Assembly (NCBI GenBank): GCA_041494705.1
Contig: JBGQBI010000004.1
Coordinates: 150,001 to 182,000 of the forward strand
Length of the DNA stretch: 32,000 nucleotides
Source of the DNA: Candidatus Methanoperedens sp.
GTDB taxonomy: Archaea; Halobacteriota; Methanosarcinia; Methanosarcinales; Methanoperedenaceae
Direction of reading: 5' to 3'
The notes under the pieces were generated by a model that did no database searches, had not been told where the DNA came from, and worked only from the letters and a program-made list of their open reading frames with translations. Of this stretch, positions 932 through 32,000 are shown in pieces; position 1 is the first letter of the stretch; every line of letters starts with the position of its first letter. Both the position numbers and the translations under genes were made by a program.

Positions 932-2839
932 CTATACGAACTTCGGCCTTGCCGACAATTTCACAGAAAGCGGATGCCTCTTGAACGGGAATCCGAAGAC
1001 CTCATCCGATATCCTGTCATTCAGTTCCCCAACCGTCATTTTAATATTCGCAGGCTTATTCGGCGATGATTCGCTCCTCACTGTAACTGTAAGATTATCT
1101 CCTGCAACCTCTTCGTCCCCCACAACTGCAACATACGGTACCCATTCCTTCCCTGCATCGCGTATCTTCTTGCCCACAGTCTCCTCGCGGTCATCGATGT
1201 CCACTCTCCAGTTCAAGCCGCCGGCAACTTTTTCCGCATATTCCAGGTGCTTTTCCGCAACGGGAATTATGCGCACCTGCGTGGGTGAGAGCCACACCGG
1301 GAACATGGGAACGATGCCCTTCTCCGAGTTCATGTGCGCTTTTTCAAGCAGGGCGTATATGCACCTCTCGATGGCGCCGCTGGGCGAGCAGTGGAGAATG
1401 GTGGGTCTTTTTTCAGCGCCTGTTGAATCGATATACTTTATGCCGTATCGCTCCGCATTCTCAACATCTATCTGCACAGTGGATAAAGCGCTGGCTTTGT
1501 CCATGGCGTCAACATAATTGAACTCGAACTTCAACACAAAATAGAAAAACCTCTGGTCCCAGAGCTCTATCAGTACAGGCTTATTGACTGTCTTGACAAG
1601 CCCAACTATGAAATCCTTATTCTCCTCATAGAAATCACGCGTGAAGCGGATTGCAACTTCGTAATCGGTCAAATCAATGCCGATTTTTGACAGCACGTTA
1701 ATGCACATGTTATACTGGTCGTTAAACTGCGCCACTGCCTCGTCCATGTCCCTGCACAGCGAATGCATATCCGGCATCGTGAACGCGCGAAGCCGCCGCA
1801 GCCCGACAAGCTCGCCGCTTTGCTCTTTCCTGAAGCTGTAACGTGTGAGTTCCACCATCCGAAGCGGCAGGTTCCTGTATGATATGGTCATGTCGTGGTT
1901 CATGAGGAACTGCCCGAAGCATGCCGCAAACCGCAAAAAAAGCTGCTTCTTGTCAGCTTCTATGGAATATTGCCGCGCCGGGAAGCGGTCAAGATATTTC
2001 TTCAGCGTGGGGTGGTTCATGTCATACATTATCGGAGTCTCGACTTCCATGGCTCCCATCTTTGCGGTTTCATCCAGCACATAGGTCTCAATAAGGCTTT
2101 TCATAAGCCGCCCCTTGGGGTAAAAACGCATATTCCCTGAGTCGGAACCGGGTTCGTAATCAGCAAGCTCAAGCCTCCTCATGAGCTCGACATGTGGAGG
2201 TATTTTATCCACTGCGCGGCTCTTGTGAATCTCGTAATTCACGAATTTTTTAAGATTATCATGCCCTGTAAAATCAAAATCCTCAGGTTTCAGGAGTTCG
2301 CCTTCGGGTGTTAATATGTGCCAGTAAGATACGGCTTTTGCCTCGGATTTTAATGCCTCGGAGACAACTTCCTCTTTTTCCTTTTCCTTTATGACCGTAA
2401 CGCATTTTTCCACGCCTCCTGCCCTTATCGTTCTTGAAAGCTCTGAAAGCGGATGCCCTTTGCACTTTATGGTAAAGGATTTATACCAGCCAAAAGGCGC
2501 GCGCTTAACTTCGAATGAAGCCTCTTTTAGCAATTCTTCAAGTTTTTTCAGTATTTCAATCGCAGTCTTGGGGGATGAGAGGCTTGAGCTTAGATGGGCG
2601 TAAGGGTACAGCATCACGCGGTTTGTCTTTACCTGCTCTGTGACTTTTCTTATTTCCTCTGCGGTCTGCCTGGAGGCATATTCGATATTGTCTTCATCAT
2701 TTTTCTCAACAGCCACAAAAACCGTAAGGGCTTCTTCCATCCTCCCCTTTTTGAGATTGTCGTCTATTTTTTCAGCGACAGGCGTGCTTCGTTTGGTCTC
2801 GTATTCTATGAAATCGGAATGAATGAGTAGTATCTGCAT
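932..2839 (-). CDS. thrS: Threonyl-tRNA synthetase, archaeal type with N-terminal editing domain
   Basis: 635-641 aa [26 protein letters not shown] is the archaeal ThrRS editing-domain start, followed by a class II catalytic core and an anticodon-binding C-terminus. ATG 2839 is preferred over 2857. Confidence 0.93.
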
Positions 2840-3000
2840 GGTATCACTTTCTCGCATCTACACCGCAATTAAGCTTAAAGTTTTGTCGGTTTTAAAAAAC
2901 AGTTTTGATTGGTGTTGGCAAGTTGGAACGAACTTAAAAAATGAATGTTACAAAAATTATATGCAGATTTATTCAAAAGTTGTAAAAATCAAAATCTTCG

Positions 3001-3918
3001 CTACATTAGTTTAAGTATTTCGCTAATTATAAGATAGGTGTGTATTGCTATCATATCTGCATCAAATTTTTCCAAAGTTCTATCATGTTCACCTTTTTGC
3101 GTAAGTTCGACTACCTGATGCAAATAATTCTCCAAATATTTAGTTTCAACTATGAAGAATTTTCTTTGGTCTCCGCCAAGCTTCTTATCTGCAAATGCAC
3201 ATAAACGATTAATAAATTGTGGTTCTCCAACACTTAATAGTGAACCATTTTTCATTTTATATTCTTTATCACTAGCTGGAAAAACTTTATCAGCCACAAA
3301 CTTTAGAATTCGTCTACATGAATGAGCTACTTTTGTCCAGTCTGCTGGGTTGGTGCTAGATAGATTTGTATAAAGAGAATCTACTTCTTTTGAAGTATTT
3401 TCGTCCAGTTTAGCCAATTTTTCATCTACGTTATTCCTAATTTCTTCCATCAAATATTCTACAATACCACCATATTGCAATTCTCTAATTATATTATTAA
3501 GAAAGAAAAGGCAATTATCTTCTATTCCGGAAATGAGCAAGTTAATCAAAGGGGGGGTCAAAATCGCAATTGTATTATCGCCCACCATTGTTGTTGCTTC
3601 CGCATCTTCACGTACTGCCTCTAACATGCTTATTGGTATTGTTATATCCCAGAATCTAGGATTTCTTTGTAATACCCCATTATGTTTATAATGACAGTTC
3701 ACAATTCTATGCTCAGGGACTTTGGAATCCCAACTTCCATTTAGTTCGGACTTTAACCATTTTTCATCTGCGCTTTTATTTAGATTACTGGCAACTGCCA
3801 AGCATGCTCTTATCAGAGAAATTACATTCATCTTGGCATCTAATAGATTCTTTCTTGTCGTATAGGCTATATCTAAAGCTTCTTCCCTGGGCGATGAGAA
3901 TTTTCTACTTTCTACCAT
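3001..3918 (-). CDS. AbiTii-like abortive-infection domain protein (305 aa), C-terminal half unknown
   Basis: The N-terminal segment NVISLIRACLAVASNLNKSADEKWLKSELNGSWDSKVPEHR matches the AbiTii N-domain pattern I recognise (helix, then W..ELNGY....PEYR). The gene is AT-rich: line 3241-3300 counts 17/60 GC. Confidence 0.6.
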   Translation of the reverse strand: MVESRKFSSPREEALDIAYTTRKNLLDAKMNVISLIRACLAVASNLNKSADEKWLKSELNGSWDSKVPEHRIVNCHYKHNGVLQRNPRFWDITIPISMLEAVREDAEATTMVGDNTIAILTPPLINLLISGIEDNCLFFLNNIIRELQYGGIVEYLMEEIRNNVDEKLAKLDENTSKEVDSLYTNLSSTNPADWTKVAHSCRRILKFVADKVFPASDKEYKMKNGSLLSVGEPQFINRLCAFADKKLGGDQRKFFIVETKYLENYLHQVVELTQKGEHDRTLEKFDADMIAIHTYLIISEILKLM

Positions 3919-4080
3919 AAATTTTAGTATATTCTTTGAGATGATAAATGTTTAATATTTGTCACAACTCTGTTCAGAGATTGCCACAATCGCGGAGGCA
4001 GTCGCAAAGAATTTTTAATTATACAACCCTCACTTTTAATGCCAAATTACATATTCTCATAGTTACAACTCTAAATTATT

Positions 4081-10574: not shown

Positions 10575-11777
10575 CTATTCCCGTTCCTTTAAATTCGAAA
10601 TATAAATCCGGCAGGACTCTTCCATTCTCTGGAACTCCCGGATTTTTCCAATAAGTTCGGGGCTCCATCCGATTAAAGCCTTTGAAAGAGCATGGATATT
10701 CAGGTCTGAGACCTCTTCCCATTTCCCTGCTTCTTTGATAATTGCATCAAGCTGCTCTCTTTCTTTTTCCTCTTTTGCAGGAAAATGTGGTTTCTCCTCA
10801 ATCTTTACACGCAATTTCTTATCATTACCTCGGATGATTTCCACTCCTTCCCGTTTTGCATAGGCGACAATCGCTTCCTTCAGCAATTCAAGCTCTGCAT
10901 CTATATTATCAACCAGCTTTTTTTTCTCCATTGATTTCTCAACATACCGGTTCACAAGCAAAACTCCCGGGTCTTCCAGGTATTTATTAAGAGGCATCTG
11001 GCCGGTTTTGACGAGATGCATTCGCTTCGGGCACAGGGACTGGTAATCGCACCAGTCGCAGAGGCCGCTAACTTGCGCCTCGAAATCATTTTCCTCTTCA
11101 GCCCGTTCGATAGTCTCTATCAGCTTTACAATCCCCGACTTGAGTTCTAAAAGATCATGCGGCTGCCGTTTTGATTTTATCTCCCTGTCAAATACAAGAT
11201 AATGCCATACAAGATCGACTTCGTTTACATCCCCGAACATTTCCTGGACGCCAATCTGGTAAAGCGCAAGCTGCCTGTCCGAGTCAAAATGCGACTGCTG
11301 CGGCAGGTACTGTGAGGTCTTGTAGTCATGAATTTCATAAACCCCGTCGCGGCTGGATGAGAGCCTGTCGATAAATCCCCTGAGTTTATATCCTTCGATG
11401 TCGATTGCTATCATCTGCTCAAGTCCAAGGGTCTTCCCGTCATTGAAAGGCTGGTATCGTGCGTAATACTCACGGATGCATCTGGCGCCTGTGTCTTTAT
11501 AATTCCGTGGAGTGTAGCCTTCTTTTATAATCCTGATACCCTCGGAATAGTTCTTGAGCCACACGTCATCATAAAAAGAAAGAAGCTCTTCCGGCGTATC
11601 TGATTTTGAGAGGCGAAGGTCTTTATAGAGTTTCTCAAGCGTTTCATGGACTCTCGAACCCATGAAGGCTTCAATTGTTTCACTCTCATCGATTTTTATT
11701 TTATCCACATATCTCAGGCGGTATTGGAGAGGACATGTCTCGAACGCGGATAAACGGGAATGGGAGTAGATTGTCAT
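10575..11777 (-). CDS. PD-(D/E)XK nuclease with a Cas4/AddB-type Fe-S cysteine cluster and a C-terminal helical extension
   Basis: HSRLSAFETCPLQYRLRY carries the N-terminal Cys. IHDYKTS is the D/ExK motif and QLALYQ the QxxxY motif. CDWCDYQSLCP supplies the three C-terminal Cys. A ~150-aa charged tail follows. Confidence 0.8.
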   Translation of the reverse strand: MTIYSHSRLSAFETCPLQYRLRYVDKIKIDESETIEAFMGSRVHETLEKLYKDLRLSKSDTPEELLSFYDDVWLKNYSEGIRIIKEGYTPRNYKDTGARCIREYYARYQPFNDGKTLGLEQMIAIDIEGYKLRGFIDRLSSSRDGVYEIHDYKTSQYLPQQSHFDSDRQLALYQIGVQEMFGDVNEVDLVWHYLVFDREIKSKRQPHDLLELKSGIVKLIETIERAEEENDFEAQVSGLCDWCDYQSLCPKRMHLVKTGQMPLNKYLEDPGVLLVNRYVEKSMEKKKLVDNIDAELELLKEAIVAYAKREGVEIIRGNDKKLRVKIEEKPHFPAKEEKEREQLDAIIKEAGKWEEVSDLNIHALSKALIGWSPELIGKIREFQRMEESCRIYISNLKERE

Positions 11778-11819: not shown

Positions 11820-12959
11820 TTACAGCAACCCTATGTTGCTCTTCCTGACCACTTCGTCATAATTCCTGATCCCCAATATTTTCTCTATCATATCAGAATG
11901 CTTCCCCTTGATTTTATTGAGCTCGGATGAAGAATAATCCGTAATGCCTTTTGCAAATACCATGCCTTCGCTCTCTATCTCGATGATATCCCCCCTGTCG
12001 AATACGCCGTCAACTCCGATAATCCCTGAAGGCAAAAGCCCTTTTTTTTTCCTGACAGCCTCCTGCGCACCTTTATCCACGATGAGCTTGCCGCTTGTCT
12101 TTGAAAGTATTATCCAGCGCGTCCTGTTCTTGTATTTCCCGTCCCGGGCAAGGAACAGTGTCCCGATGTCCTCGCCGTCCATGATTTTAATAACCACATC
12201 CTGAATGGCGCTGTTTGCTATAACCATGTGGCAGCCTGCAATGGATGTTATCTTGGCAGCCTCAATTTTTGTCCTCATGCCGCCCACGCCTTTCATGCTT
12301 GTCGGGCTTCCCCCGTAGCTTTCTATTTCAGGCGTGATTTTTTCTATGGTGCTTATGAGCTTTGCATCCTCATTTTTCTTGGGATTCTTGTCATAAAGCC
12401 CGTCAATATCGGATAAAAGGATGAGGAGTTCTGCCTCAACCTTGCTTGCCACCATTGCGGAGAGCTTGTCGTTGTCCCCGAAGGTCGCCTCTATTTCATG
12501 CACGCATATAGGGTCGTTTTCATTGATTATGGGAACGACACCCGCATCCAATAGCGCCGAAATGCTGTTTCGAAGGTTAAGATACGTCATCCTGTTCGAG
12601 AAGGCTTCGTAGGTCAGCAATATCTGAGCCACCTTCAGGTCATGCTTACTGAACGCCGCCATCCATTCCTGCATCAGGATATTCTGTCCCACGGCTGCTG
12701 CTGCCTGCCGAAGCGGGATTTCCCTGGGGCGCTCCTTCATTTTCAGTTCTTCGCACCCTATCCCGATTGCGCCTGAGCTTACTATTATCACGGTTTTCCC
12801 GGCATCCCTCAGTCTTGCAACCTGCGCTGCCAGATCCTCTGTCAACCGCCTGTTAAAACTCCCATCCTCGTTGGAAAGGGATGATGTTCCTATTTTCAGG
12901 ACTATCTTTTTGACATCCTTAAAAAGCTCTCTCCTGTCAATGGTTTTAGTGGATTCCAT
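11820..12959 (-). CDS. proB: Glutamate 5-kinase with a C-terminal PUA domain
   Basis: Contains VLKIGTSSL, VIIVSSGAIGIG and a PUA-like C-terminus (LPSGIIGVDGVFDRGDII). ATG 12959 sits just downstream of the proA stop codon. The longest ORF starts at 12995. Confidence 0.92.
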   Translation of the reverse strand: MESTKTIDRRELFKDVKKIVLKIGTSSLSNEDGSFNRRLTEDLAAQVARLRDAGKTVIIVSSGAIGIGCEELKMKERPREIPLRQAAAAVGQNILMQEWMAAFSKHDLKVAQILLTYEAFSNRMTYLNLRNSISALLDAGVVPIINENDPICVHEIEATFGDNDKLSAMVASKVEAELLILLSDIDGLYDKNPKKNEDAKLISTIEKITPEIESYGGSPTSMKGVGGMRTKIEAAKITSIAGCHMVIANSAIQDVVIKIMDGEDIGTLFLARDGKYKNRTRWIILSKTSGKLIVDKGAQEAVRKKKGLLPSGIIGVDGVFDRGDIIEIESEGMVFAKGITDYSSSELNKIKGKHSDMIEKILGIRNYDEVVRKSNIGLL

Positions 12960-12960
12960 C

Positions 12961-14316
12961 TCATCCCTTACCCATTTTGTCAGCAAGGCTTGCATTTAGC
13001 TTTTTATGCGTATATTTCCTTGCGTTCTTTCCTACATAATCAGCCACTTTATGCCCTTTTCCCATAAGCACATATTTGTAAATCAAAAGCCCTTCCATCC
13101 CGACCGGGCCGCGGGCATGGATTTTATTAGTGCTGATGCCCACTTCTGCGCCTTTACCGTATCGGAACCCGTCTGCAAAGCGCGTGGATGCATTCCACAT
13201 CACGCTGGATGAGTCCACAAGGTCGATGAACCTGCCGGCATTGCTTTTATCTTCGGTAACAATGGCATCAGTATGATGTGAGCCGTATTTGTTGACATGG
13301 TCAATAGCCTCATCCAGCGAATCTACTATTTTTATGGAAAGGATAAGGTCATTGTACTCTGTTCTCCAGTCTTCTTCTGTGGCATGAAGGAGGGCTTTCA
13401 AGAATCCCATTTTTTTTAATAACCTGAATGAACGCTCATCGCACCGAAGTTCCACGCCCGCCTCGTTGTATCTCTTTCCCATCTCAGGCAGGAATTTTTC
13501 CGCAATATCCCTGTGCACAAGCAGGGTTTCCATGGCATTGCAGACTGCGGGGTACTGGACTTTTGCATCATAGCATACATCGAGCGCCGTATTCATATCA
13601 GCCTCGCTGTCAACATACACATGACAGATGCCTGCAGAATGACCAAGCACAGGAATCCGCGTATTGTCCTGGATGTATTTCACGAACTCGTTTGAGCCTC
13701 TCGGGATTATGAGGTTTATGTAATCATCAAGCTTCAGCATCTCGTTTACTTCTTCCCGTGTCTCCATGAGCGCGAATGCGCCCGCCGGCATCCCTTCCGT
13801 GCCCTCGATGGCGTTCACGAGCACATCGAAGATTGTCCTGTTTGAGTGCGCAGCCTCGCTTCCACCTTTGAAGATGGTAGCATTGCCGCTTTTCAGGCAG
13901 AGCGACATAATCTGCGGCACAACGTCGGGACGGGATTCAAAAATGACGCCGATTAATCCGATGGGACAGCTTACCTGAAAAAGTTCAAGACCGCTGTCAA
14001 GTTCAAGTGCGGAAAGTGTCTTTCCTACCGGGTCTTCGAATTTGATGACGTCTTTGATGCCTGCTATCATCTCGTCTATCTTGATTTCGTCCACTTTCAG
14101 CCTTTTGATAATGGCTTTTGGAAGCTTGCCTGCTTCTACGAGTTTCTCTGCCGCTGCAATGTCTTTTTTGTTGGCTGAGATGATTATCTCCCTGTTTGAG
14201 TCAAGAGCCTGTGCCATCGAAGCGAGGACTCTGTTCTTTACGGCGCCGGGCACGCTTGCTAATGGGATGGAGGCGCTTTTTGCGAGGGTGACTTTGGTGA
14301 TTATATCATTGGACAT
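12961..14316 (-). CDS. proA: Gamma-glutamyl phosphate reductase
   Basis: 451 aa, aldehyde-dehydrogenase-like, with IFESRPDV, CNAMETLLVH (catalytic Cys) and ASTRFADGFRYG. Confidence 0.93.
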   Translation of the reverse strand: MSNDIITKVTLAKSASIPLASVPGAVKNRVLASMAQALDSNREIIISANKKDIAAAEKLVEAGKLPKAIIKRLKVDEIKIDEMIAGIKDVIKFEDPVGKTLSALELDSGLELFQVSCPIGLIGVIFESRPDVVPQIMSLCLKSGNATIFKGGSEAAHSNRTIFDVLVNAIEGTEGMPAGAFALMETREEVNEMLKLDDYINLIIPRGSNEFVKYIQDNTRIPVLGHSAGICHVYVDSEADMNTALDVCYDAKVQYPAVCNAMETLLVHRDIAEKFLPEMGKRYNEAGVELRCDERSFRLLKKMGFLKALLHATEEDWRTEYNDLILSIKIVDSLDEAIDHVNKYGSHHTDAIVTEDKSNAGRFIDLVDSSSVMWNASTRFADGFRYGKGAEVGISTNKIHARGPVGMEGLLIYKYVLMGKGHKVADYVGKNARKYTHKKLNASLADKMGKG

Positions 14317-14384: not shown

Positions 14385-15824
14385 TCAAGCTTCTTTTTTT
14401 ATTATATATCTAGCTAATGAAAGCACCTTCTCAGCATCTTCTTTCGTGGCTCTGATTGTTCCATGAAGGATTTCATTTCTCTTTTGTTTCATTTTCATAA
14501 GAATCTCATAGTCGGCATTTAACAATATCTCTTGAAGATTGATTGATTTGATAATTTTGTCAATGTTCCACTTACTTATTTCTTTTTTGAATCCACCAGA
14601 AATGCCTTTCTCTTTTAAAAAATCTTCCCACTTTCCAGTAAGGTACTTTTCAATTATTACCCAGCTCATAAAAAATGATTGAGTATATTCCGATTCAGAG
14701 AAGTGTGTATAAGATTCGAGGAAGAATGGAATATAAAAACGAAGCTTAGGGTTATTCCAATATAGTTCGGCGTCTTTGAGCGTTTCACCTAATTCCTTAT
14801 GGGTGAGTTTTGTTCTCCTTCTAAAAAATGGCTCCGCTGACTTTTGTTCATACTGAATTGAGAATCTTGGAAGCATAGGTATAGACGAACCTCCAAATTT
14901 TTTTGAGTTAATGTCGTATTGGAAGTGTCCGAGTTCATGTTCTCGTATCACATACGACAAAGTTCCCCTTAGAAAAAAGGTGGCAACCAAGACATTGAGG
15001 ATTTCCAGAGCTACTTTGTTTTCTATTTCTTCTACTCCTACAAATCCATCATAGGTTGCGATAACATTTTGGCCATTAAATTTACCTTCAAAGACAACCG
15101 TACCGAATTTAATTATGTGTATTTCCTCGAATAATTCCTCTGAAAAGGGGACTTTTGGCGCCTTTCCAATATACACAGGTGGAAATAGAAATGTTCCATG
15201 CCACTTATATATGGGTTCGGAATGTTCTTGAATTTTCTGTGGTTCAGTCTTAGCTAATATTTCGACTGTCTTTTGAGCTTGCTCGTTTTGACAAGCATTT
15301 TTAGCATTATGAATTATCGAGACGACCATACTTGCTGGGTCAGCCTTAGTAATGTCTCCATAACAAGACCATATAGCAGAATTTTTCAAAAAATATTGTT
15401 TGTGAGTAGGGATGTCTAAAAAGATGGGATTGAATACATTTCTTTGAATTTCTCTAAGAATGCTTCTTAGATCCCTATCGAGTAAAGTTCTAACAATTGG
15501 TTCGCCTTCGAGAAAAAAAAGAACATATTGTTCATCTGTATCTATTGGAATATCCCAAACAGGGTCAGAAATGATTTTTTCAAATAGCTCGAAGGCTTCG
15601 TATGGCTTGATAGGTCCATACGCCCACACTTTTTCATCCTTTATATGGGGAAGATGGAGAATAAAAGTCTTGGTCAGCGGAGGATATTCAAATGTAATAG
15701 ACAGTATTTGGCACGGTTCCGTCAAATCATCTAAGTTGATGTTTTTCCTTTCGCCTTCAGATAGTTCTTTATATTTCTCACGGAACTCTTGAATGAGATT
15801 CTTAAACCAGTCTTCACGGTTCAT
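14385..15824 (-). CDS. 479-aa protein with a C-terminal HEPN (Rx4H) domain; N-terminal two-thirds unknown; internal HELGH
   Basis: KQKRNEILHG (R449...H454, nt 14463-14480) lies within a helical C-terminal ~140 aa (FFMSWVIIEKYL ... AEKVLSLARYIIK). HELGH is at aa 296-300 (nt 14925-14939). The gene is AT-rich: line 14581-14640 counts 20/60 GC. Confidence 0.7.
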   Translation of the reverse strand: MNREDWFKNLIQEFREKYKELSEGERKNINLDDLTEPCQILSITFEYPPLTKTFILHLPHIKDEKVWAYGPIKPYEAFELFEKIISDPVWDIPIDTDEQYVLFFLEGEPIVRTLLDRDLRSILREIQRNVFNPIFLDIPTHKQYFLKNSAIWSCYGDITKADPASMVVSIIHNAKNACQNEQAQKTVEILAKTEPQKIQEHSEPIYKWHGTFLFPPVYIGKAPKVPFSEELFEEIHIIKFGTVVFEGKFNGQNVIATYDGFVGVEEIENKVALEILNVLVATFFLRGTLSYVIREHELGHFQYDINSKKFGGSSIPMLPRFSIQYEQKSAEPFFRRRTKLTHKELGETLKDAELYWNNPKLRFYIPFFLESYTHFSESEYTQSFFMSWVIIEKYLTGKWEDFLKEKGISGGFKKEISKWNIDKIIKSINLQEILLNADYEILMKMKQKRNEILHGTIRATKEDAEKVLSLARYIIKKEA

Positions 15825-15998
15825 AATTTCTTCTTAGTTTTACTGTCTTATAGGCAAGTGAACTACGTTGTAGCGTTATATATAGCTCGCTAATTTCTTA
15901 GAAGTGTCACGGTGAGAACAAGAAACGCCTGCCAAACCTGCTCTCCAGCCCCGTTTGCGGTATGTTCTGGATAAAAAATAACGCTACCAAAAAATTAC

Positions 15999-16336: not shown

Positions 16337-17434
16337 ATGAAAGCGGTACTCGGGCTTGAGGACGGAACATTTGTAAAAGGAGAAGGTCTGGGAGTGGAAG
16401 GTATTGTCCGGGGCGAGCTTGTTTTTACAACGCAGTACACAGGTTACGAGGAAGCCCTGACAGACCCATCGTATAAGGGACAGATACTGATGTTCACGTA
16501 TCCGCTCATCGGCAACTACGGCATAAGCGGCGAAACCTTCCAATCCGATAGGATGCAGGCAGAAGGACTGGTTGTAAGGGAAGCCTGCGACCATCCATCC
16601 CATCACAAATCAAAGCGCTCAATTTTTGAGTTCCTGAAGGATGAGGGCAAATCAGGCATCATGGGAATTGATACCCGTATGCTCACGATAAAAACAAGAG
16701 AGCACGGCACCATGAAAGCCGCTATAATAGTCGGGGACGATAACGGCGAGGAAGCTGTTAGGCTTGCAAGGGAGCAGCCCGATATAGGAGGTCTTGACCT
16801 GATTAGCAGGGTCACATGCAAAGAGCCATACCGGGTAAAAGGGCAGGAAGACGGGGGCAACATCGTGCTCATGGATTTCGGTGCAAAGAGAAACATCGTT
16901 AAAAGCCTGAACAACCGGGGAATCAATGTCACTGTTGTTCCTGCAACAACGAAGTTAAAAGATATCATGAATTACGAGCCGGATGCCCTGCTTCTCTCCA
17001 ATGGCCCTGGAGACCCGCAGCAGGCAATAAACGGCATCTCGGTCGTGAAAGAGCTTGCTGGACAATTGCCCATTTTCGGCATCTGTCTCGGGCACCAGAT
17101 TATCTCGCTGGCGCTCGGGGGAGAGACTTACAAGATGAAGTTCGGACACCGCGGAGCCAACCAGCCTGTGAAGGACAAAAAGAGGGGTATCGTGTACATC
17201 ACATCGCAGAACCACGGTTATGCGGTGGATGATAGCAGCATGGATGAAAAAGAGGTATCTATCACTCAATTAAACGCCAATGACGGCACTGTTGAAGGGC
17301 TTGAGCATAAAAAGCTTGAGATAATATCGGTGCAGTACCATCCTGAAGCGCACCCGGGACCTCTTGATACCGAGAAGATTTTCTTTGACAGGGTTGCTGA
17401 AACGGTGAGAAGGATGAAAGTGCTGGTTAAATAA
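16337..17434 (+). CDS. carA: Carbamoyl-phosphate synthase small (glutaminase) subunit
   Basis: Starts MKAVLGLEDGTFVKGEG. The GATase triad context is present: PIFGICLGHQ (Cys nucleophile) and VQYHPEA. Confidence 0.93.
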   Translation: MKAVLGLEDGTFVKGEGLGVEGIVRGELVFTTQYTGYEEALTDPSYKGQILMFTYPLIGNYGISGETFQSDRMQAEGLVVREACDHPSHHKSKRSIFEFLKDEGKSGIMGIDTRMLTIKTREHGTMKAAIIVGDDNGEEAVRLAREQPDIGGLDLISRVTCKEPYRVKGQEDGGNIVLMDFGAKRNIVKSLNNRGINVTVVPATTKLKDIMNYEPDALLLSNGPGDPQQAINGISVVKELAGQLPIFGICLGHQIISLALGGETYKMKFGHRGANQPVKDKKRGIVYITSQNHGYAVDDSSMDEKEVSITQLNANDGTVEGLEHKKLEIISVQYHPEAHPGPLDTEKIFFDRVAETVRRMKVLVK

Positions 17435-17658: not shown

Positions 17659-18639
17659 TCATTTCAAAGGTTCTTTATATCTCGTTCTGAAAAATTCTTC
17701 TTCATCCACTAGGTCCTTGAGGATATTTTTCTCGCATACGTCAAGAAAATCTTTAAAACAATCTTTGTCGCTAATTACAATTTTATTATTTTTAACTTCA
17801 AACTTTAGATAAGGAACCATTTTTTTTATTTTCGATATTCTATTGATATCAATCTTATCAAAACCACCCTGGAGTGAAAGGCGAGCTATTCTCTTTAAGA
17901 ATGCAGGTTTATCAAGTATTTGATCACGGAGATCTTCTTGTATTTCAAAATTTTTAAATGATGTAAGCTTTTCAAATACCTTCTTAGATTCATTTATATA
18001 AAGATCTAATAAAGAGAAAATCGATTCGAAGCCGTTCCTATTCAAAATATACATAATTTCATGAATATTATCTAATTTGTAATAAACGCAATCAATAAAA
18101 TCATCAAATTTACATACATCACCATATACACGATTGAATATGCCGTCCTTAAAACTAAATAAAGTATTTTCTGAAGAGATGACACTCCCCTTGGTGTATT
18201 TACGGAAATATATGACTTTATTATTTATACTTTTGAATTCAACAGCATAACTATGAAATCCTTCTATTGATCCTCCTTCGAAGGTTTTAATTTGATCTAG
18301 GTTTGTATGTTGTTCCATCCGCATGTCAATATATCTAAATGTTGGAATTAGAAGAAGATTTTCAATAACAGCTATGTGTTCGTGTTCGGGCAACAAGTCA
18401 CTCGCAAAGAAATCTTTAAACTTCAAATCTTGAATTTTAATAGTATTTAGCTGTGATACTATAGTTTTGGTAAATTTGATCTTTACATCGCCTGCAATGC
18501 TAACAGAAAATACCCTATTCATTTTTTCTGGCATACGGCTATTGCTTTTTTTGATAAAGTACATCTCTATCTGAACATCTTTTTCTTGAATATGTGCCAA
18601 CATCAGGTCAATTATAGATTTTGCATCAATCATCTTCAT
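17659..18639 (-). CDS. 326-aa soluble protein, KwaB/DUF4868-like by architecture
   Basis: Its start overlaps the upstream membrane-protein gene by 14 nt. I found no catalytic motif. The central segment FRKYTKGSVISS...CKFDDFIDCVYYKLDNIHEIMYILNRNGFESIF resembles my recollection of DUF4868. Line 18001-18060 counts 17/60 GC. Confidence 0.5.
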   Translation of the reverse strand: MKMIDAKSIIDLMLAHIQEKDVQIEMYFIKKSNSRMPEKMNRVFSVSIAGDVKIKFTKTIVSQLNTIKIQDLKFKDFFASDLLPEHEHIAVIENLLLIPTFRYIDMRMEQHTNLDQIKTFEGGSIEGFHSYAVEFKSINNKVIYFRKYTKGSVISSENTLFSFKDGIFNRVYGDVCKFDDFIDCVYYKLDNIHEIMYILNRNGFESIFSLLDLYINESKKVFEKLTSFKNFEIQEDLRDQILDKPAFLKRIARLSLQGGFDKIDINRISKIKKMVPYLKFEVKNNKIVISDKDCFKDFLDVCEKNILKDLVDEEEFFRTRYKEPLK

Positions 18640-19214: not shown

Positions 19215-19712
19215 TCACATCTTCCACCTGTCATCCACAGGAAAACACTCTTTAATCCACATAAGCACCTTATTCTCATAGATTATCCTGTATTCCCTTG
19301 AAAGCACGGGAACGTTCCCAAAAAAATCCTGCCGCACAATTTCCATTTTCAGTATATTCCGCCTTGTCTCAAGCTTATGCTCCCGCAGAATCCTTCCTAT
19401 CGGGATATCCGCCCGCATGAGGTCGTCCCTCACTGCCTGCGGCATTCTTTTTACGGGCGCCAGGGATTTTGCCAGAACGTAAATAGTCCCTCCGGCATCC
19501 AATGTAACAAGACGGCTGTTGACCTCGTCCCCGACCTCGATATCAAGAAGCTTTGCGATATCAGGCGTTGCTTTTATCACGCTTTGTTCAAGCGTTTTGA
19601 CTACTACCGTTTTCCCTGTGAGCACCTCAAGAAGCTGCGTGACCGAGCCGTCAGTGCCTGCGCAAATGCGGAGGCATGCGGGAACATCAGGTCTTTTAAG
19701 CGCATCCCACAA
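19215..19712 (-). CDS. Chorismate pyruvate-lyase-like (DUF98/UbiC-fold) protein
   Basis: LRICAGTDGSVTQLLEVLTGKTVVVKTLEQ ... IPIGRILREHKLETRR fits the DUF98/chorismate-lyase pattern. Confidence 0.7.
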   Translation of the reverse strand: MWDALKRPDVPACLRICAGTDGSVTQLLEVLTGKTVVVKTLEQSVIKATPDIAKLLDIEVGDEVNSRLVTLDAGGTIYVLAKSLAPVKRMPQAVRDDLMRADIPIGRILREHKLETRRNILKMEIVRQDFFGNVPVLSREYRIIYENKVLMWIKECFPVDDRWKM

Positions 19713-19714
19713 AT

Positions 19715-20047
19715 TCAGGCTCCCTGCACTTCTTTCTTGGCTTTTGCAAGCCGTTCCTTGGCATTATAACCGGTGGCATCTTCAAGGAAGACCCTGTAGC
19801 GCTTGTTGGTATCGAGAATAACATCGTCTTTAACGTCTTTGTTATATTCGGTTTCCACGCACAGCTTTTTATTATCAACCCGGACAGTTAACGTTTTGAA
19901 AGCACCGTAATTTATTGTGCATTTCCCGTTCTCTTCCTTTATCTGCGCTGGAAAATTCTTCTCAAGCTCTGCCCTGATTCGCCCTGCATCCTGCGAAAAA
20001 CCTCGTTTAAATGAATACTCCTGAATAATATCACCTTCATACCACAA
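19715..20047 (-). CDS. Conserved small hypothetical protein (110 aa)
   Basis: Backbone GC. Its stop lies 2 nt upstream of the DUF98 gene start, so the two are probably co-transcribed. Confidence 0.5.
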   Translation of the reverse strand: MWYEGDIIQEYSFKRGFSQDAGRIRAELEKNFPAQIKEENGKCTINYGAFKTLTVRVDNKKLCVETEYNKDVKDDVILDTNKRYRVFLEDATGYNAKERLAKAKKEVQGA

Positions 20048-20823: not shown

Positions 20824-22113
20824 CTATTTAGGTCGATAATATTCCCATTTAAGAAGCGCCTGCTGTAATTCCTTGTTTTTCCTGGCATAATCCGAAAGTT
20901 CAATCCCTTCCATTGTTGCTTCGATTGCCTGCATCACAGCTTTTGCCCCTGCGCGTGTTCCTTCCGGGTGCCCGTGTATGCCGCCGCTTACGAGAATCGT
21001 GCAATCATTTCCGAGAATTCCCATTACAGACGGTATTAAACCAGGATGGAGACCGCCTGAAGAAACAGGCAGCGCCGGTTTTATCTTACCCCAATCCTGT
21101 GAAAGGAAAGGCCCTTTTATGTGAGAATCCCGGAGAACATTCGCAATCCCTACTATCTCCTTTTTTGTCCCCACCAGTTTTCCGATTGCAGTCCCTGAAT
21201 GAATTTCATCAACACCGATTAACCGCATAAGTTTTGCAAGGAAATACATCGTCAGCCCATGTTTTGGATTCCGGTCAAATGCAGCGTGCATGGCCCGGTG
21301 GGCATGTATAGCTAGACCCAAATCGCCGCATTCCTCGCGCATGGTCTGGACCGAGGCTGTCCCGCACGTGACCACATCAATCATTGCAAATCTCCATCCG
21401 GAATCGTGAAGCAATTTCGCCTTGCGAATCATTTCTTTTGTTTCACCTGTGATATTAAGGAGGGCATCTTTCTGCTCGCCCGTTTCCTTTTCGGCTTTGT
21501 CCCGCAATTTTGTCATTCGGGAAAGTCTGTCTTCAAAACGGTTAAAAGAAGTCGAGGTCAAATTTTCATCGTCTTTTACAAGGTCAAACCCGCCCATCCA
21601 TGTTTCATACGCTACTTTTGCATGTTCAGCCGCACTGAAGCCGATTTTGGGTTTCGGAACTGCGCCTGTTATGGGTCTTTCTTTTACTTTCAAAAGATTC
21701 CTGATTCCTGAAATACCGTGATGCGGTCCTTTGAAGGAGCTGATATACTTTGCAGGAAGGGAGGCATCTATTAGTCTTAAGTTGCGCAACGCCTTCATGC
21801 CAAAGATGTTACCTGCTATGCCGCTTAAGAGCTGGGGCGCATTTCCCGGTTCCCAGAGGTCAAGCGGATATGCCACTTTTACATATTTCCCATCCTGTTC
21901 AAAAGCCCGTGCTTTAATCTTTTCAACTCTTGCCGGCAAATCGTGGAGGGTTGTCCATGTCCCGGCTGAACTTTCAGAGGCAATTCTCCCGATTGCTTCT
22001 TTTGCGCTTATCCCTTTTGCGGGTTCAAAATAATATAAACATACAAGGTCATTTCTTGAAGGCTTATAGTTAAAATCCACGAATGTATCGTACCAATCGA
22101 TTTTCTCAGTCAT
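20824..22113 (-). CDS. rbcL: Ribulose-1,5-bisphosphate carboxylase, form III large subunit
   Basis: Contains GAVPKPKIG, DLVKDDE (carbamylated Lys), HAHRAMH, HSGT, SSGGLHPG and GGIHGHPEG. ATG 22113 (MTEKIDWYDTF) aligns better with form III N-termini than the TTG at 22143. Confidence 0.92.
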   Translation of the reverse strand: MTEKIDWYDTFVDFNYKPSRNDLVCLYYFEPAKGISAKEAIGRIASESSAGTWTTLHDLPARVEKIKARAFEQDGKYVKVAYPLDLWEPGNAPQLLSGIAGNIFGMKALRNLRLIDASLPAKYISSFKGPHHGISGIRNLLKVKERPITGAVPKPKIGFSAAEHAKVAYETWMGGFDLVKDDENLTSTSFNRFEDRLSRMTKLRDKAEKETGEQKDALLNITGETKEMIRKAKLLHDSGWRFAMIDVVTCGTASVQTMREECGDLGLAIHAHRAMHAAFDRNPKHGLTMYFLAKLMRLIGVDEIHSGTAIGKLVGTKKEIVGIANVLRDSHIKGPFLSQDWGKIKPALPVSSGGLHPGLIPSVMGILGNDCTILVSGGIHGHPEGTRAGAKAVMQAIEATMEGIELSDYARKNKELQQALLKWEYYRPK

Positions 22114-22316
22114 TTGAACATCATCCGGACTGACATATACCAAAACTAACTATTTATAGTTCATGATTTTTAAACATATAATACCAAACTTTCGGCTTTG
22201 AAATCACTGTGAGGCTCGGCGGCGCCGTCTGCGAGCGTGTGGCTGTGCCAGCGTGAGTTTGCAGAGGGGGGCGGCGCGAGACAAAATTTCAAAAAAAATT
22301 ATCCAATTTACTTAAG

Positions 22317-22763
22317 TTATAATACGTCAACCGGAGACACTATATCCACATAATTATTTAACCCACGGCTGGTGAGCATCCTATCGTCTGTGGTAACCAG
22401 CGGAATTTTGAGTATTTTAGCACAAATCACATGCATCAGGTCGCTTTCGGATATTCTATCGTCGGCTTTCCTGAGTTCTGAATAAACCATCATATCATTA
22501 TTTGATGGTACAAAATTCTCAAGCTTCGTAGAAATGAGCATATCCACAACAGCATGGAGGATTTCCGGTTTTATCATTTGCCTTATATTATCAGCATATA
22601 GAATCGAATTGATCATTTCTCCACTTACAAACGGTGAAATATATCCAATAAATACCTCGTTGTGGATACGACTGATAAAACTCTTACATGCCCTTGTATT
22701 TTCGTCCTTAATAACTGCTCCGAGAAAAATACAGCTATCGATAAAAAATCTATTTTTTGGCAT
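22317..22763 (-). CDS. vapC: PIN-domain ribonuclease toxin (VapC-like)
   Basis: Acidic PIN residues occur in FFIDSCIF, SGEMINS and VTTDDRML. 148 aa. Its start overlaps the stop of a small upstream ORF. Confidence 0.75.
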   Translation of the reverse strand: MPKNRFFIDSCIFLGAVIKDENTRACKSFISRIHNEVFIGYISPFVSGEMINSILYADNIRQMIKPEILHAVVDMLISTKLENFVPSNNDMMVYSELRKADDRISESDLMHVICAKILKIPLVTTDDRMLTSRGLNNYVDIVSPVDVL

Positions 22764-28991: not shown

Positions 28992-29237
28992 ATGAAAAGT
29001 ATGGAAAAATTCAATGTTACAGCTATAATCTGGCAGGAAGATGATGTTTATGTTTCAAAATGCCCTGAACTTGACGTTGCAAGTGCAGGCGACACGCCTG
29101 AGGAAGCTCTTCTTAACCTGAAAGAGGCGGTTGAATTATATATAGAGAATGCAAAAGCCCTGGGAATTTTAAATGATTTTGCTGCATCCATACATTCCCC
29201 AAATAAATTCACGTCAACTATTGGTGTGGCCGTGTGA
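28992..29237 (+). CDS. hicB: HicB/UPF0150-family antitoxin
   Basis: FNVTAIIWQEDDVYVSKCPELDVASAGDTPEEALLNLKEAVELYIEN is the classic HicB N-domain pattern. Confidence 0.75.
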   Translation: MKSMEKFNVTAIIWQEDDVYVSKCPELDVASAGDTPEEALLNLKEAVELYIENAKALGILNDFAASIHSPNKFTSTIGVAV

Positions 29238-29272
29238 GTAAACTTCCTTCTGTTTCATCTGAAAAAATATAG
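29234..29272 (+). pseudogene. hicA: Truncated hicA toxin remnant (12 codons)
   Basis: The GTG overlaps the hicB stop in a GTGA junction. It encodes (M)SKLPSVSSEKI and then TAG. This matches the HicA N-terminus (M.KLP.vSgkEvik...), but the dsRBD-like body is absent and AT-rich island sequence follows. Confidence 0.55.
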
Positions 29273-29314
29273 AAATCATTAGATTTTAGAATTGTACCAT
29301 TCTTATTAATGAAA

Positions 29315-30190
29315 TTATAATTCTTCAAAGATAATGTCTCGTAGCTGAATTTTTATTTTAATCCTATTTACCTTATTATTTGACCGAATGAGAGAAAAAT
29401 AACCCTTATCAATATTATTCAACGTATCAATCAATTTTTGTTTTTGATCCATATCGAATATTTTATTATCAAAGATTTTCCTCAACAAAAATAAAGCTCT
29501 ATCTTTATTAATAGAACCATCTTCTTTTAATATATCAACATAAATCCCATGTGTCTTCCCAGATGCAACTTTGAATATATTACCGGTTTTTTTCGGAATT
29601 TCGTCTAATCTTCTTAAATTTGAGAGAATTGAATCTTCACCAACAACTTTTGAATCCCATATTTTATCCAAATCACTGACATCTTTGGGATAATGCTTTT
29701 TTAATAGTTCAACAGCGAAATCTGCAGAATGAGCAAACTCGGATTTATTTGATTCATCGACATAAAGTGATAAATCTGGTGAAAATGCATATAATCCAAG
29801 GACTGTGAATAGAATCACTTTATCTTTTGGCCTCAATGATTCATATTTTGTTTTCAAATTTTTTTCAAATAAAAGTGAATTGAGATCATTGAGATAACTA
29901 TCAAACTGATCAGAGAATTCAAGATTATATTCTAAAATAACGAGACCTTTGTATGTTAAGAGATAATATCCCTCTTCTTCGATCAAATCTAAAATTCCTT
30001 TATTTACAAGATGATCTAATTCAGACAACGAATATGACCATTCATCCCTTTTAAAACTGGTTGAGGAGAAAAATTCCTGGAGATTTTTTACAGGCTTTTT
30101 GATTAAATCAACAGAATATTTTCCTTTAGACTTAGAAATTTTTGTAATTAGAAACTCTTTGTATTCTGGTTTTAAGTAATATTGGGGCAA
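29315..30190 (-). CDS. 291-aa protein of unknown function, possible N-terminal winged helix; partner of the upstream ATPase
   Basis: SELDHLVNKGILDLIEEEGYYLLTYKGLVILE is wHTH-like and the rest is unrecognised. It starts 12 nt after the ATPase stop and is very AT-rich. Confidence 0.55.
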   Translation of the reverse strand: MPQYYLKPEYKEFLITKISKSKGKYSVDLIKKPVKNLQEFFSSTSFKRDEWSYSLSELDHLVNKGILDLIEEEGYYLLTYKGLVILEYNLEFSDQFDSYLNDLNSLLFEKNLKTKYESLRPKDKVILFTVLGLYAFSPDLSLYVDESNKSEFAHSADFAVELLKKHYPKDVSDLDKIWDSKVVGEDSILSNLRRLDEIPKKTGNIFKVASGKTHGIYVDILKEDGSINKDRALFLLRKIFDNKIFDMDQKQKLIDTLNNIDKGYFSLIRSNNKVNRIKIKIQLRDIIFEEL

Positions 30191-30202
30191 ATCATCACCT
30201 AC

Positions 30203-32000
30203 TTACACAGGGACAGGGTCCCAGGTAATCTCTGACACTTTGCTGTCTGCTATGGTAATTAGTGCAAATATCGTTTCACCTTTTTTAATCTGGCTCTTTA
30301 TCTCATCAACCAATATTCCAATGTTTTTTTCATCCATATGCCCGATTTCATCTACCAATATGATCTTCTTTTTCCCACCAAAATTCTGCTTTATACGGGA
30401 TAAAATTGAATTTAGGGCGGTATGACCAGTTCCCATCTGAACAAATTTGATCGGTTTTCTATTTTTTACAATATATTGTCTGTTTACAAGATCGACTTTT
30501 TCGACTACCCAAGATTTTTTCTCAAAGTATACATTTTGTAGAATTTCAGCAAAATATTCGGATAAAGCATCAAACAATTCTTTTGCATGCTTATAATCAA
30601 TCCCCATATCTGTCTTTCTGAAATCAACCGGTTCGAGAGCCTTTTTCCATTTGTTTACTTTTGATATCAAATCAAAACATTTAGCAGATTCTTCCTCTAG
30701 CCAATCTTCATCAAATGCAGGTAGGGTCTCTAATTCACCTAATTGTTCAATAAGAGCAACCAATGTCTTTTCTTTCTGTCCCAAGCTTGCAATCTCTATT
30801 TCTAAATCTTCAAATTCTTTTTTTGTCCTTTTATATTGTTCACGTTGTCCGGGATTATCTAGAATTTCATCGATCTCATTTTCGGACAATGATTCAACAA
30901 TCTCCTCATGTTTCGAAGATTCCTTCTCCAAAAGGTCTAATTTGCTTTCCAATTTCTTAATTTCCTTTTCAATCTGATCATATTCATACATTTGTTCTTC
31001 ATCGACATCAGGAATTTTATCACGCTTTACTTTGAGATCAGAAAGATATACTGAAAGTTTATTTAATTCGCTGCTAACTTCAGCCAAATCTCGTTTTTTC
31101 AAGATTTTAGGTTCTAATTGTTTGTTAAATTCATCTAACTCTTTATAAAATGAAAAAATATTTTTTTCATCGGTCCCGGGAACATTCATTTCAAGACTTA
31201 AATATCCCCTTAAAACTTCCATAATTTTATTGATTAATTCAGATTGTTTCTCTTCTTGTTTGAATTTCTCATTAAGAGGGTCATTTTTAAGATCCAAAAT
31301 GATTTTTTTTACATCATCAGTCCATTCTTCAATATTTTTTATTGCTATTTCTTTAGGACTATATAATTCATTAAGTTTTTTTTCAATTTTTTTAATAAAT
31401 GTGAGGTTTTCTTCTGATAAAATTTCACGATATTTTTTTATTAAAGATAGAGATTTTTTAGTGTTACTATTAACTATATTAAATTCAGTGACTTGTTGTT
31501 TGAACTTGGGGGTTCCACCGCCTAAACCTTTCTGCTTTAAATTTGTTCTTTTTTCCTTTAGACTAACTAATTCATTTTCATTTTGTTCATATAAATCCTC
31601 TATTTCGTAATATGAAATTACTTTATCAGCTATCTCTAATTTTGAGACTTCCGCTTCCACTCTATTTTTCAATTCTTTTTTATTTTCTAGTTCTCTCTTA
31701 GTTTCTTCCAATATACCCTTATTTTTTTGAATCTTTTTATCTTTCTCCTTAAAATCTATTATTTGAGTCCTTTTGTTACCCAAATCTTGGTCATATCTTG
31801 TGAGATATCTTTCATAATCTATGAGATTCTCTCTAATGAGACGAACCGATGATTGGAGTTTGACCAATGGATCATCCGGAACATCATAAAGTACTTGAAT
31901 ATTCTCATTAAAATATTCAGAACCTACGGGTTCACCATTTAATTTTGTATTCAGTGAACCTTTATCATATTGAGAATAGATTTCCATGAGACCATCCTTG
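30203..32000 (-). CDS. Coiled-coil ABC/SMC-Rad50-like ATPase (C-terminal head half visible); possibly continues beyond the window
   Basis: About 450 aa of heptad-rich K/E/L sequence precede FVQMGTGHTALNSIL (a degenerate signature-like motif) and KKIILVDEIGHMD (Walker B plus D-loop, nt 30332-30364). There is no Walker A in the window. The first ATG is at 31987, but the frame stays open (KDGL-M) to position 32000. Confidence 0.65.
   Translation of the reverse strand, partial: KDGLMEIYSQYDKGSLNTKLNGEPVGSEYFNENIQVLYDVPDDPLVKLQSSVRLIRENLIDYERYLTRYDQDLGNKRTQIIDFKEKDKKIQKNKGILEETKRELENKKELKNRVEAEVSKLEIADKVISYYEIEDLYEQNENELVSLKEKRTNLKQKGLGGGTPKFKQQVTEFNIVNSNTKKSLSLIKKYREILSEENLTFIKKIEKKLNELYSPKEIAIKNIEEWTDDVKKIILDLKNDPLNEKFKQEEKQSELINKIMEVLRGYLSLEMNVPGTDEKNIFSFYKELDEFNKQLEPKILKKRDLAEVSSELNKLSVYLSDLKVKRDKIPDVDEEQMYEYDQIEKEIKKLESKLDLLEKESSKHEEIVESLSENEIDEILDNPGQREQYKRTKKEFEDLEIEIASLGQKEKTLVALIEQLGELETLPAFDEDWLEEESAKCFDLISKVNKWKKALEPVDFRKTDMGIDYKHAKELFDALSEYFAEILQNVYFEKKSWVVEKVDLVNRQYIVKNRKPIKFVQMGTGHTALNSILSRIKQNFGGKKKIILVDEIGHMDEKNIGILVDEIKSQIKKGETIFALITIADSKVSEITWDPVPV

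Follow-up and report, generated by a model that had tools for sequence, protein, structure and literature searches.

A candidate single-protein HEPN ribonuclease with an unrecognised N-terminal region in a Methanoperedens-like archaeon

The HEPN-protein gene and its C-terminal domain

The stretch of DNA analysed here, 32,000 nucleotides of contig JBGQBI010000004.1 from Candidatus Methanoperedens sp. (hereafter "the window"), carries a lone minus-strand gene between proA and carA. We term its product the HEPN protein, because its C-terminal part probably adopts the HEPN fold; coordinates are collected in Table 1. We consider it moderately likely that the gene encodes a single-protein, trigger-activated HEPN ribonuclease (RNase) of the abortive-infection or antiviral type, whose sensor region would be new. 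A metagenome contig of 2.07 Mb encodes an identical protein, recorded as a "hypothetical protein". The start codon is placed such that the N-terminus MNREDWF lines up with the starts of homologues.

An earlier note on this DNA described a single reading frame of 479 codons in an AT-rich islet, with 20 G+C among the 60 letters of line 14581-14640, and both the reading frame and the counts were verified. The gene has a G+C fraction (GC) of 0.358 and a third-codon-position value (GC3) of 0.325, compared with 0.48-0.50 and 0.55-0.59 for proB, proA and carA, and is compositionally foreign next to these flanking genes. A dN/dS of 0.31 against the gene of an 80%-identical relative (locus L098) indicates purifying, though fairly relaxed, selection. 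Repeats flanking the islet are merely short two-copy matches of chance quality, and the window contains neither a tRNA nor an Rfam element.

The sequence upstream contains a TATA-box-like element that is probably the archaeal promoter of the gene. The earlier note had recognised this element correctly and placed it ~50 nt before the ATG; the measured distance is 60 nt. An element of the form GCGA[GA][CT]ATATATAA is found upstream of both the window gene (15876-15890, minus strand) and the 80%-identical gene, which it precedes by ~50 nt (L098 80-100). Its retention upstream of both genes is consistent with an archaeal promoter. Separately, the TATA box and the ATG are bracketed by an imperfect direct repeat of 23 nt (15824-15846 and 15891-15913, 74% identity), perhaps a chance occurrence.

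In the active site of HEPN RNases, as Anantharaman et al. 2013 define it (PMC3710099), the arginine of an Rx4-6H motif is followed by a polar residue (N, D or H), and a conserved acidic residue is located in helix 2. The C-terminal part of the HEPN protein contains the sequence R449-N450-E-I-L-H454. Rx4H also appears in 37% of shuffles of the protein; thus, the presence of the motif alone is no evidence, and it is conservation that supplies it. Among 115-137 aligned homologues of 20-80% identity, R449 is conserved in 98-99%, N450 in 92-93% and H454 in 100%, and the presumed helix 2 carries W388 (100%) and E392 (98-99%).

An AlphaFold2 (AF2) model computed from 115 sequences (predicted local distance difference test, pLDDT, 90.5; predicted template-modelling score, pTM, 0.78) is wholly helical across residues 342-478, with helices at 342-357, 359-376, 380-405, 436-453 and 461-478 and an insert formed by 412-416 and 421-430. 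W388 and E392 lie on helix 380-405. Helix 436-453 terminates in R449-N450, and H454 falls in the loop before the closing helix. In the model, this placement of the motif from a helix end into a loop is that described for HEPN domains in PMC3710099, and the polar N450 after R449 and the helix layout likewise agree with the HEPN superfamily (Pfam clan CL0291), the layout in secondary-structure order only. Conservation and the predicted structure make it probable that the C-terminal ~140 residues are a HEPN domain with a strictly conserved R-N-x3-H and a helix-2 glutamate. The earlier note had proposed both the Rx4H motif (R449, H454) and a helical C-terminus of this length with helices before and after the motif, and both are borne out.

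Profile matches point the same way. When 100 family members were scanned singly against Pfam, 25 matched DUF4145 (E ≤ 0.01), 16 HEPN_RiboL-PSP and 5 HEPN_Swt1, and no other Pfam family was matched by more than one member. Two homologues, scored at full length, exceed the gathering score of DUF4145 (PF13643; 23.1 bits): P0246 with 26.1 bits and P0250 with 27.4 bits. Together with the 25 matches, they link the family to DUF4145 transitively, as a divergent branch. PADLOC matches to CARF_HEPN, Csx1, Csm6 and AbiV are confined to the HEPN part.

As a side observation, the window protein and its 80%-identical relative P0002 carry F412, E415, K426 and V278, where 87-95% of the family have R, K, E and E, respectively. 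A 4-residue deletion is also present in the insert between HEPN helix 2 and helix 3. R412 and E426 may represent a lost conserved pair.

Residues 296-300 read HELGH, in which the earlier note had seen the zincin consensus and, should it be real, an unusual combination of a metallopeptidase-like part with the HEPN domain. If H296-E297-x-x-H300 were a zinc site, the protein would be both a protease and an RNase, and a literal HExxH is indeed found in only 2.7% of shuffles. However, H296 is retained in just 20% of 137 homologues, the commonest residue at position 300 is E (34%) and H is not in the majority there, and H300 gives way to G, D, K, N, E or S in relatives that are 52-80% identical. Conservation around the motif is moderate, and only at R294, E295 and E297. 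A zincin has a conserved HExxH on a helix and a third zinc ligand; here, the segment is modelled as a coil leading into a strand (299-304), with no helix. No peptidase family of Pfam, NCBIfam or PADLOC was matched by any of the 100 members, and Foldseek found no PDB peptidase for the model. Because it is not conserved, the HExxH is best regarded as a chance match; a metallopeptidase-HEPN fusion can hardly be credited, the peptidase half being refuted by conservation. The gene is a well-supported candidate and not a surprise; the unusual peptidase-RNase combination that had set it apart is not real.

The N-terminal region and the extent of the family

In the AF2 model, the N-terminal region consists of two alpha/beta modules. 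The core of either module has the order beta-beta-beta-alpha-beta-beta-alpha, and the 13 beta strands of the region are arranged as antiparallel beta meanders. Comparison of the two modules with hhalign gave no sign of internal duplication (probability 0.8%). Near-invariant residues are F14, R15, P37, Q39, D63, W152, G156, P215, G260, N277, R294 and R320. The polar residues R15, Q39, D63, N277 and R320 are 92-100% conserved across the family, which suggests a binding or regulatory site.

Foldseek searches used a shallow first model (pLDDT 76) and, later, the deep one. With the latter, nothing in PDB or BFVD matched the N-terminal region at E<0.04, and phmmer and profile searches of PDB sequences with the whole protein gave no match. 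No Pfam, NCBIfam, PADLOC or PHROG match to this region recurs among family members. The only Foldseek matches, to Hsp70, actin and Hsp90, were non-significant, with a template-modelling (TM) score of ~0.1, and we do not take them for an ASKHA relationship. The region has no Walker A motif, only three cysteines and no zinc-ribbon pattern, and so can be neither an ATPase like that of PrrC nor a zinc ribbon like that of RAZR. It may be, although we advance this only tentatively, that the 340-residue region is an undescribed fold serving as the infection sensor of a large and unnamed family, at least 1,250 clusters strong, of single-protein HEPN immune RNases common to archaea and bacteria.

A word-indexed search found 12 relatives, including proteins from metagenome-assembled genomes of Ca. 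Methanoperedens (61% identity), Spirochaetes and Omnitrophica, and a repeat with a 100-sequence profile returned the same 12 proteins only. A profile search without a word index retrieved 1,250 cluster representatives (clusters defined at 50% identity) at E ≤ 1e-3 and 326 at E ≤ 1e-30; almost all are 470-520 amino acids long and match end-to-end. Of the 130 proteins found when the search was seeded by the family centroid, all are named "hypothetical protein" save one, which JGI calls "YutE (DUF86 family)"; DUF86 is itself among the HEPN families. Bathyarchaeota and Methanobacterium sp. SMA-27 are among the sources that carry a name. This makes the family large, uncharacterised, common to archaea and bacteria, and without a curated model: no member matched NCBIfam, and no PHROG match recurs among members.

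Two members, P0073 (740 aa) and P0013 (741 aa), have ~260 extra C-terminal residues. The extension of P0073 matches methyladenine glycosylase (PF03352, 1.4e-05); a true fusion and gene-calling read-through are both possible.

Genomic contexts and a candidate function

We compared 10 contexts, namely the window and nine other loci. The genes flanking the 10 family members are mutually dissimilar, so that no conserved partner gene exists among them. Recognised defence genes lie within 8 kb in six of the 10, a raw count without a background rate. In the window, a complete Kiwa system is located 1.8 kb from the HEPN-protein gene, beyond carA. Its kwaA and kwaB genes overlap by 14 nt in a second, very AT-rich islet with a GC of 0.25-0.30 directly downstream of carA, so that carA is bordered on both sides by foreign defence-type islets.

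Elsewhere, family members are found amid two prok_STING genes, two ThsB_TIR genes, an AlbA_2 gene and a PIN gene (L004); near GmrSD and a pair of SNF2 helicase and DUF1156 methylase genes (L013); directly after a SIR2-like gene (L014); close to genes for a SIR2 protein and for PDC-S28, a candidate helicase of PADLOC (L015); and within a type I restriction-modification (R-M) operon (L012). Two neighbours point to defence more weakly: an AlbA_2/HATPase_c_4/wHTH gene that the member directly follows (L016), and an adjoining large serine recombinase, which indicates mobility (L003). In L001, from Methanoperedens, the member stands alone between a ribosomal-protein operon and ftsZ, and in L017 it lies among amino-acid biosynthesis genes. 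Such contexts fit a defence-type gene that is mobile and stands alone; a stand-alone defence protein is what the earlier note had supposed.

At seven loci with an 82-90% identical proA, the HEPN-protein gene is not nearby, and the genes upstream are quite different; this precludes a clean "empty site" comparison for the insertion. Kinship of the HEPN protein with the neighbouring KwaB was rejected (hhalign probability 0.5%), despite the weak PADLOC KwaB match of one member.

HEPN toxins are frequently paired with a minimal nucleotidyltransferase (MNT) or with small antitoxins (PMC3710099). In the window, a same-strand reading frame of 57 codons lies 174 nt upstream of the HEPN-protein gene, and small upstream reading frames accompany several homologues too, so the gene could encode the toxin of a toxin-antitoxin pair that this small protein or an MNT neutralises. 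However, the neighbours of the 10 members lack similarity on both sides, none of the 10 contexts has an adjoining MNT (the sole Polbeta-type gene is 6 kb away, in L012), and a protein of 479 residues with a conserved 340-residue N-terminal part is unlike the minimal HEPN toxins. The 57-residue product has no Pfam or PADLOC match and no counterpart beside homologues, and is probably not a partner of the HEPN protein. We regard the toxin-antitoxin explanation as quite unlikely.

In L012 (4982-15050), the gene order is hsdM, a 368-aa gene, family member P0217, a 106-aa gene, hsdS, a 322-aa gene and hsdR; the three genes accompanying P0217 are unannotated, and the arrangement is PrrC-like. DUF4145 proteins have been recorded in R-M operons (PMC3710099). 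Family members might thus be accessory guards of type I R-M systems, that is, latent anticodon nucleases that a type I R-M complex silences and that are freed when a virus inhibits restriction. Such a role is unlikely, because an R-M operon occurs in only one of the 10 contexts, none adjoins the window gene, and the protein has no PrrC-like ABC-ATPase or Walker A motif.

A third alternative, with no role in defence, is an enzyme that processes RNA for housekeeping or regulation, or a HEPN protein that binds nucleotides and is non-catalytic. Core metabolic or ribosomal neighbours in the window and in three other genomes would fit this, and a virus phenotype is not known. Arguing against it are the sporadic distribution with neighbours that never repeat, the absence of the gene near proA in close proA relatives, the foreign base composition, and a dN/dS that is high for a core enzyme. 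The intact and near-invariant catalytic R-N-x3-H speaks against a non-catalytic HEPN protein. This alternative, too, appears improbable.

The reading that we prefer, a stand-alone, trigger-activated HEPN RNase, is supported by sequence, by predicted secondary structure and by context, with relatives scattered over archaea and bacteria and often found amid defence genes. RAZR, the characterised example among DUF4145 HEPN proteins, is the closest known system in the domain family. It acts by abortive infection, requires its R and H, forms HEPN dimers, and becomes toxic only once its N-terminal zinc-finger domain is bound by a ring protein of the phage (PMC13017515). The window protein resembles RAZR in having a DUF4145-type C-terminal HEPN domain and in joining, within a single protein, a presumed N-terminal recognition part to a predicted C-terminal RNase. 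However, the N-terminal part of RAZR is a Cys4 zinc ribbon of ~65 residues, whereas that of the window protein is the 340-residue alpha/beta region with three cysteines; the R-to-H spacing is seven residues in RAZR (R146, H154) and four here; and the window protein scores below the DUF4145 threshold.

ApeA was reportedly presented by Gao et al. as a single-gene HEPN defence. It is mainly helical; its N domain resembles catenin, its Mid domain is PafA-like and its HEPN_ApeA domain is split. Once activated by a deoxydinucleotide ligand, ApeA cuts tRNA anticodon loops (bioRxiv 10.64898/2026.01.26.701840). The window protein is comparable in that ApeA is stand-alone, has ~500-600 residues and a C-terminal HEPN domain, and carries non-catalytic N-terminal domains for sensing, a role that we presume here. 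Its N-terminal part is rich in beta strands, unlike the helical N and Mid domains of ApeA, and the HEPN_Apea and ApeA_NTD models of Pfam and PADLOC were matched by none of the 100 members. Thus, the HEPN domain and the stand-alone sensor-plus-RNase type proposed in the earlier note are supported, whereas its ApeA analogy, taken as membership, falls together with the zincin.

The best PADLOC matches of the family are the CARF-HEPN models of Csm6/Csx1, in which a ligand-sensing N-terminal alpha/beta part is likewise followed by a C-terminal HEPN domain. However, these matches extend over the HEPN part alone (positions 341-435 of a profile of 482), and the N-terminal part has antiparallel beta meanders and not the Rossmann-like fold of an N-terminal CARF domain. 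CRISPR-cas genes were not seen among the window reading frames scanned or in the 10 contexts. PrrC/RloC also has a C-terminal HEPN RNase domain, and prrC resides in type I R-M operons as one family member does, but the ABC-ATPase N-terminal domain is missing from the window protein and the R-M linkage is confined to that one context. Single-stranded DNA, when presented by its binding protein SSB, activates DARNA, which cleaves tRNA (DARNA preprint). By analogy, the window protein may be likened to RAZR, ApeA and DARNA in working logic, but it is a member of none.

From PMC3710099, RAZR (PMC13017515), and the ApeA and DARNA preprints, we infer how such an enzyme could operate. Two HEPN domains would dimerise to form a composite, metal-independent active site, as in other HEPN RNases, and the 340-residue N-terminal region would keep the enzyme silent as long as no trigger is bound. 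Viral proteins, nucleic acids and small molecules are all possible triggers, and binding could take place at a site lined by the invariant residues R15, Q39, D63, N277 and R320. The activated enzyme would then cut cellular or viral RNA, tRNA anticodon loops being the commonest target of the class, and translation and virus production would stop.

Several points weigh against this reading. The function of the family is a prediction throughout, with nearly every source name being "hypothetical", and that the N-terminal region acts as a sensor is purely inferential. The window protein itself matches DUF4145 with 14.8 bits (E 0.03), under the gathering threshold. Foldseek searches of PDB and BFVD with the full-length pLDDT-90 model found no significant HEPN or other structure; therefore, the HEPN fold rests on profiles, motif conservation and helix order, and not on three-dimensional superposition. 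In the window protein and its closest relative, R412 is replaced by F and E426 by K in the HEPN insert, at sites that are 92-95% conserved elsewhere, and this loss might alter regulation or activity. Two of the 10 contexts hold housekeeping or unrelated genes only, the count of six near defence genes is raw, and tblastn of two family members against phage and plasmid collections gave no match.

How infection is recognised is now being learned from single-protein HEPN RNases, among them ApeA, RAZR and DARNA, in each of which the non-catalytic domain sets what is sensed. The present family draws interest because it is large, spans archaea and bacteria, and has a high-confidence predicted structure with a sensor-sized region that lacks a structural neighbour. 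If the N-terminal region is indeed such a sensor, both the defence family and its module for recognising the trigger would be new, with the present case coming from a Methanoperedens-like archaeon; confirmation of the family would add both a sensor module and an archaeal example. Archaeal defence, above all in methanogen and methanotroph lineages, has been poorly sampled by experiment.

Other features of the window

Table 1. Positions in the window of the HEPN-protein gene, its predicted parts and the neighbouring genes
Feature	Position	Strand	Remark
Complete coding sequence of the stand-alone HEPN protein	14385..15824	-	479 aa plus stop, ATG start; from list of open reading frames
N-terminal region, aa 1-341, two alpha/beta modules, unrecognised fold	14802..15824	-	AF2 model; presumed sensor or regulatory part
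Conserved polar residue R15	15780-15782	-	
Conserved polar residue Q39	15708-15710	-	
Conserved polar residue D63	15636-15638	-	
Conserved polar residue N277	14994-14996	-	
Conserved polar residue R320	14865-14867	-	
HELGH, aa 296-300, chance HExxH	14925..14939	-	Poor conservation; coil/strand in AF2 model
Probable C-terminal HEPN domain, DUF4145 type, aa 342-479, all helical	14388..14801	-	AF2 model and family profile matches
W388 to E392 (WVIIE), HEPN helix 2	14649..14663	-	E392 is the conserved acidic residue accompanying Rx4H
Predicted catalytic motif RNEILH (Rx4H), aa 449-454	14463..14480	-	Conservation and position in model
TATA-box-like element TATATATAA	15876..15884	-	Coding strand 15884..15876; upstream of ATG
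Small open reading frame, 57 aa	15999-16172	-	54 aa in source record
proB	11820-12995		Flanking gene
proA	12961-14316		Flanking gene; NCBIfam 2.8e-167
carA	16337-17434	+	Flanking gene; NCBIfam 4.3e-141
KwaB	17659-18639	-	Pfam 4.7e-12; PADLOC 1.2e-20
KwaA	18626-19183	-	PADLOC 7e-26

The carA gene is not followed by carB; the opposite-strand Kiwa genes come next, and after them genes for a chorismate pyruvate-lyase-like protein (19215-19712) and for a DUF5611 protein (19715-20047). Directly downstream of proB is a gene of the PD-(D/E)XK nuclease superfamily (10575-11777, minus strand; Pfam 1.9e-33). It occupies the same place in L018, where proA is 90% identical, and thus belongs to the local core synteny and not to an islet.

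A PIN-domain protein (22317-22763, minus strand; Pfam 2.9e-08) is encoded between a form III RuBisCO gene (20824-22143) and gatB/gatA, and may be a VapC-type toxin. More AT-rich stretches, with a GC of 0.25-0.39, extend over 2500-4000 and 29000-32000 of the window. Their minus-strand reading frames at 3001-3918 (305 aa), 29315-30190 (291 aa) and 30203-31987 (594 aa) have no meaningful match among PDB sequences, and the stretches may be further foreign islets.

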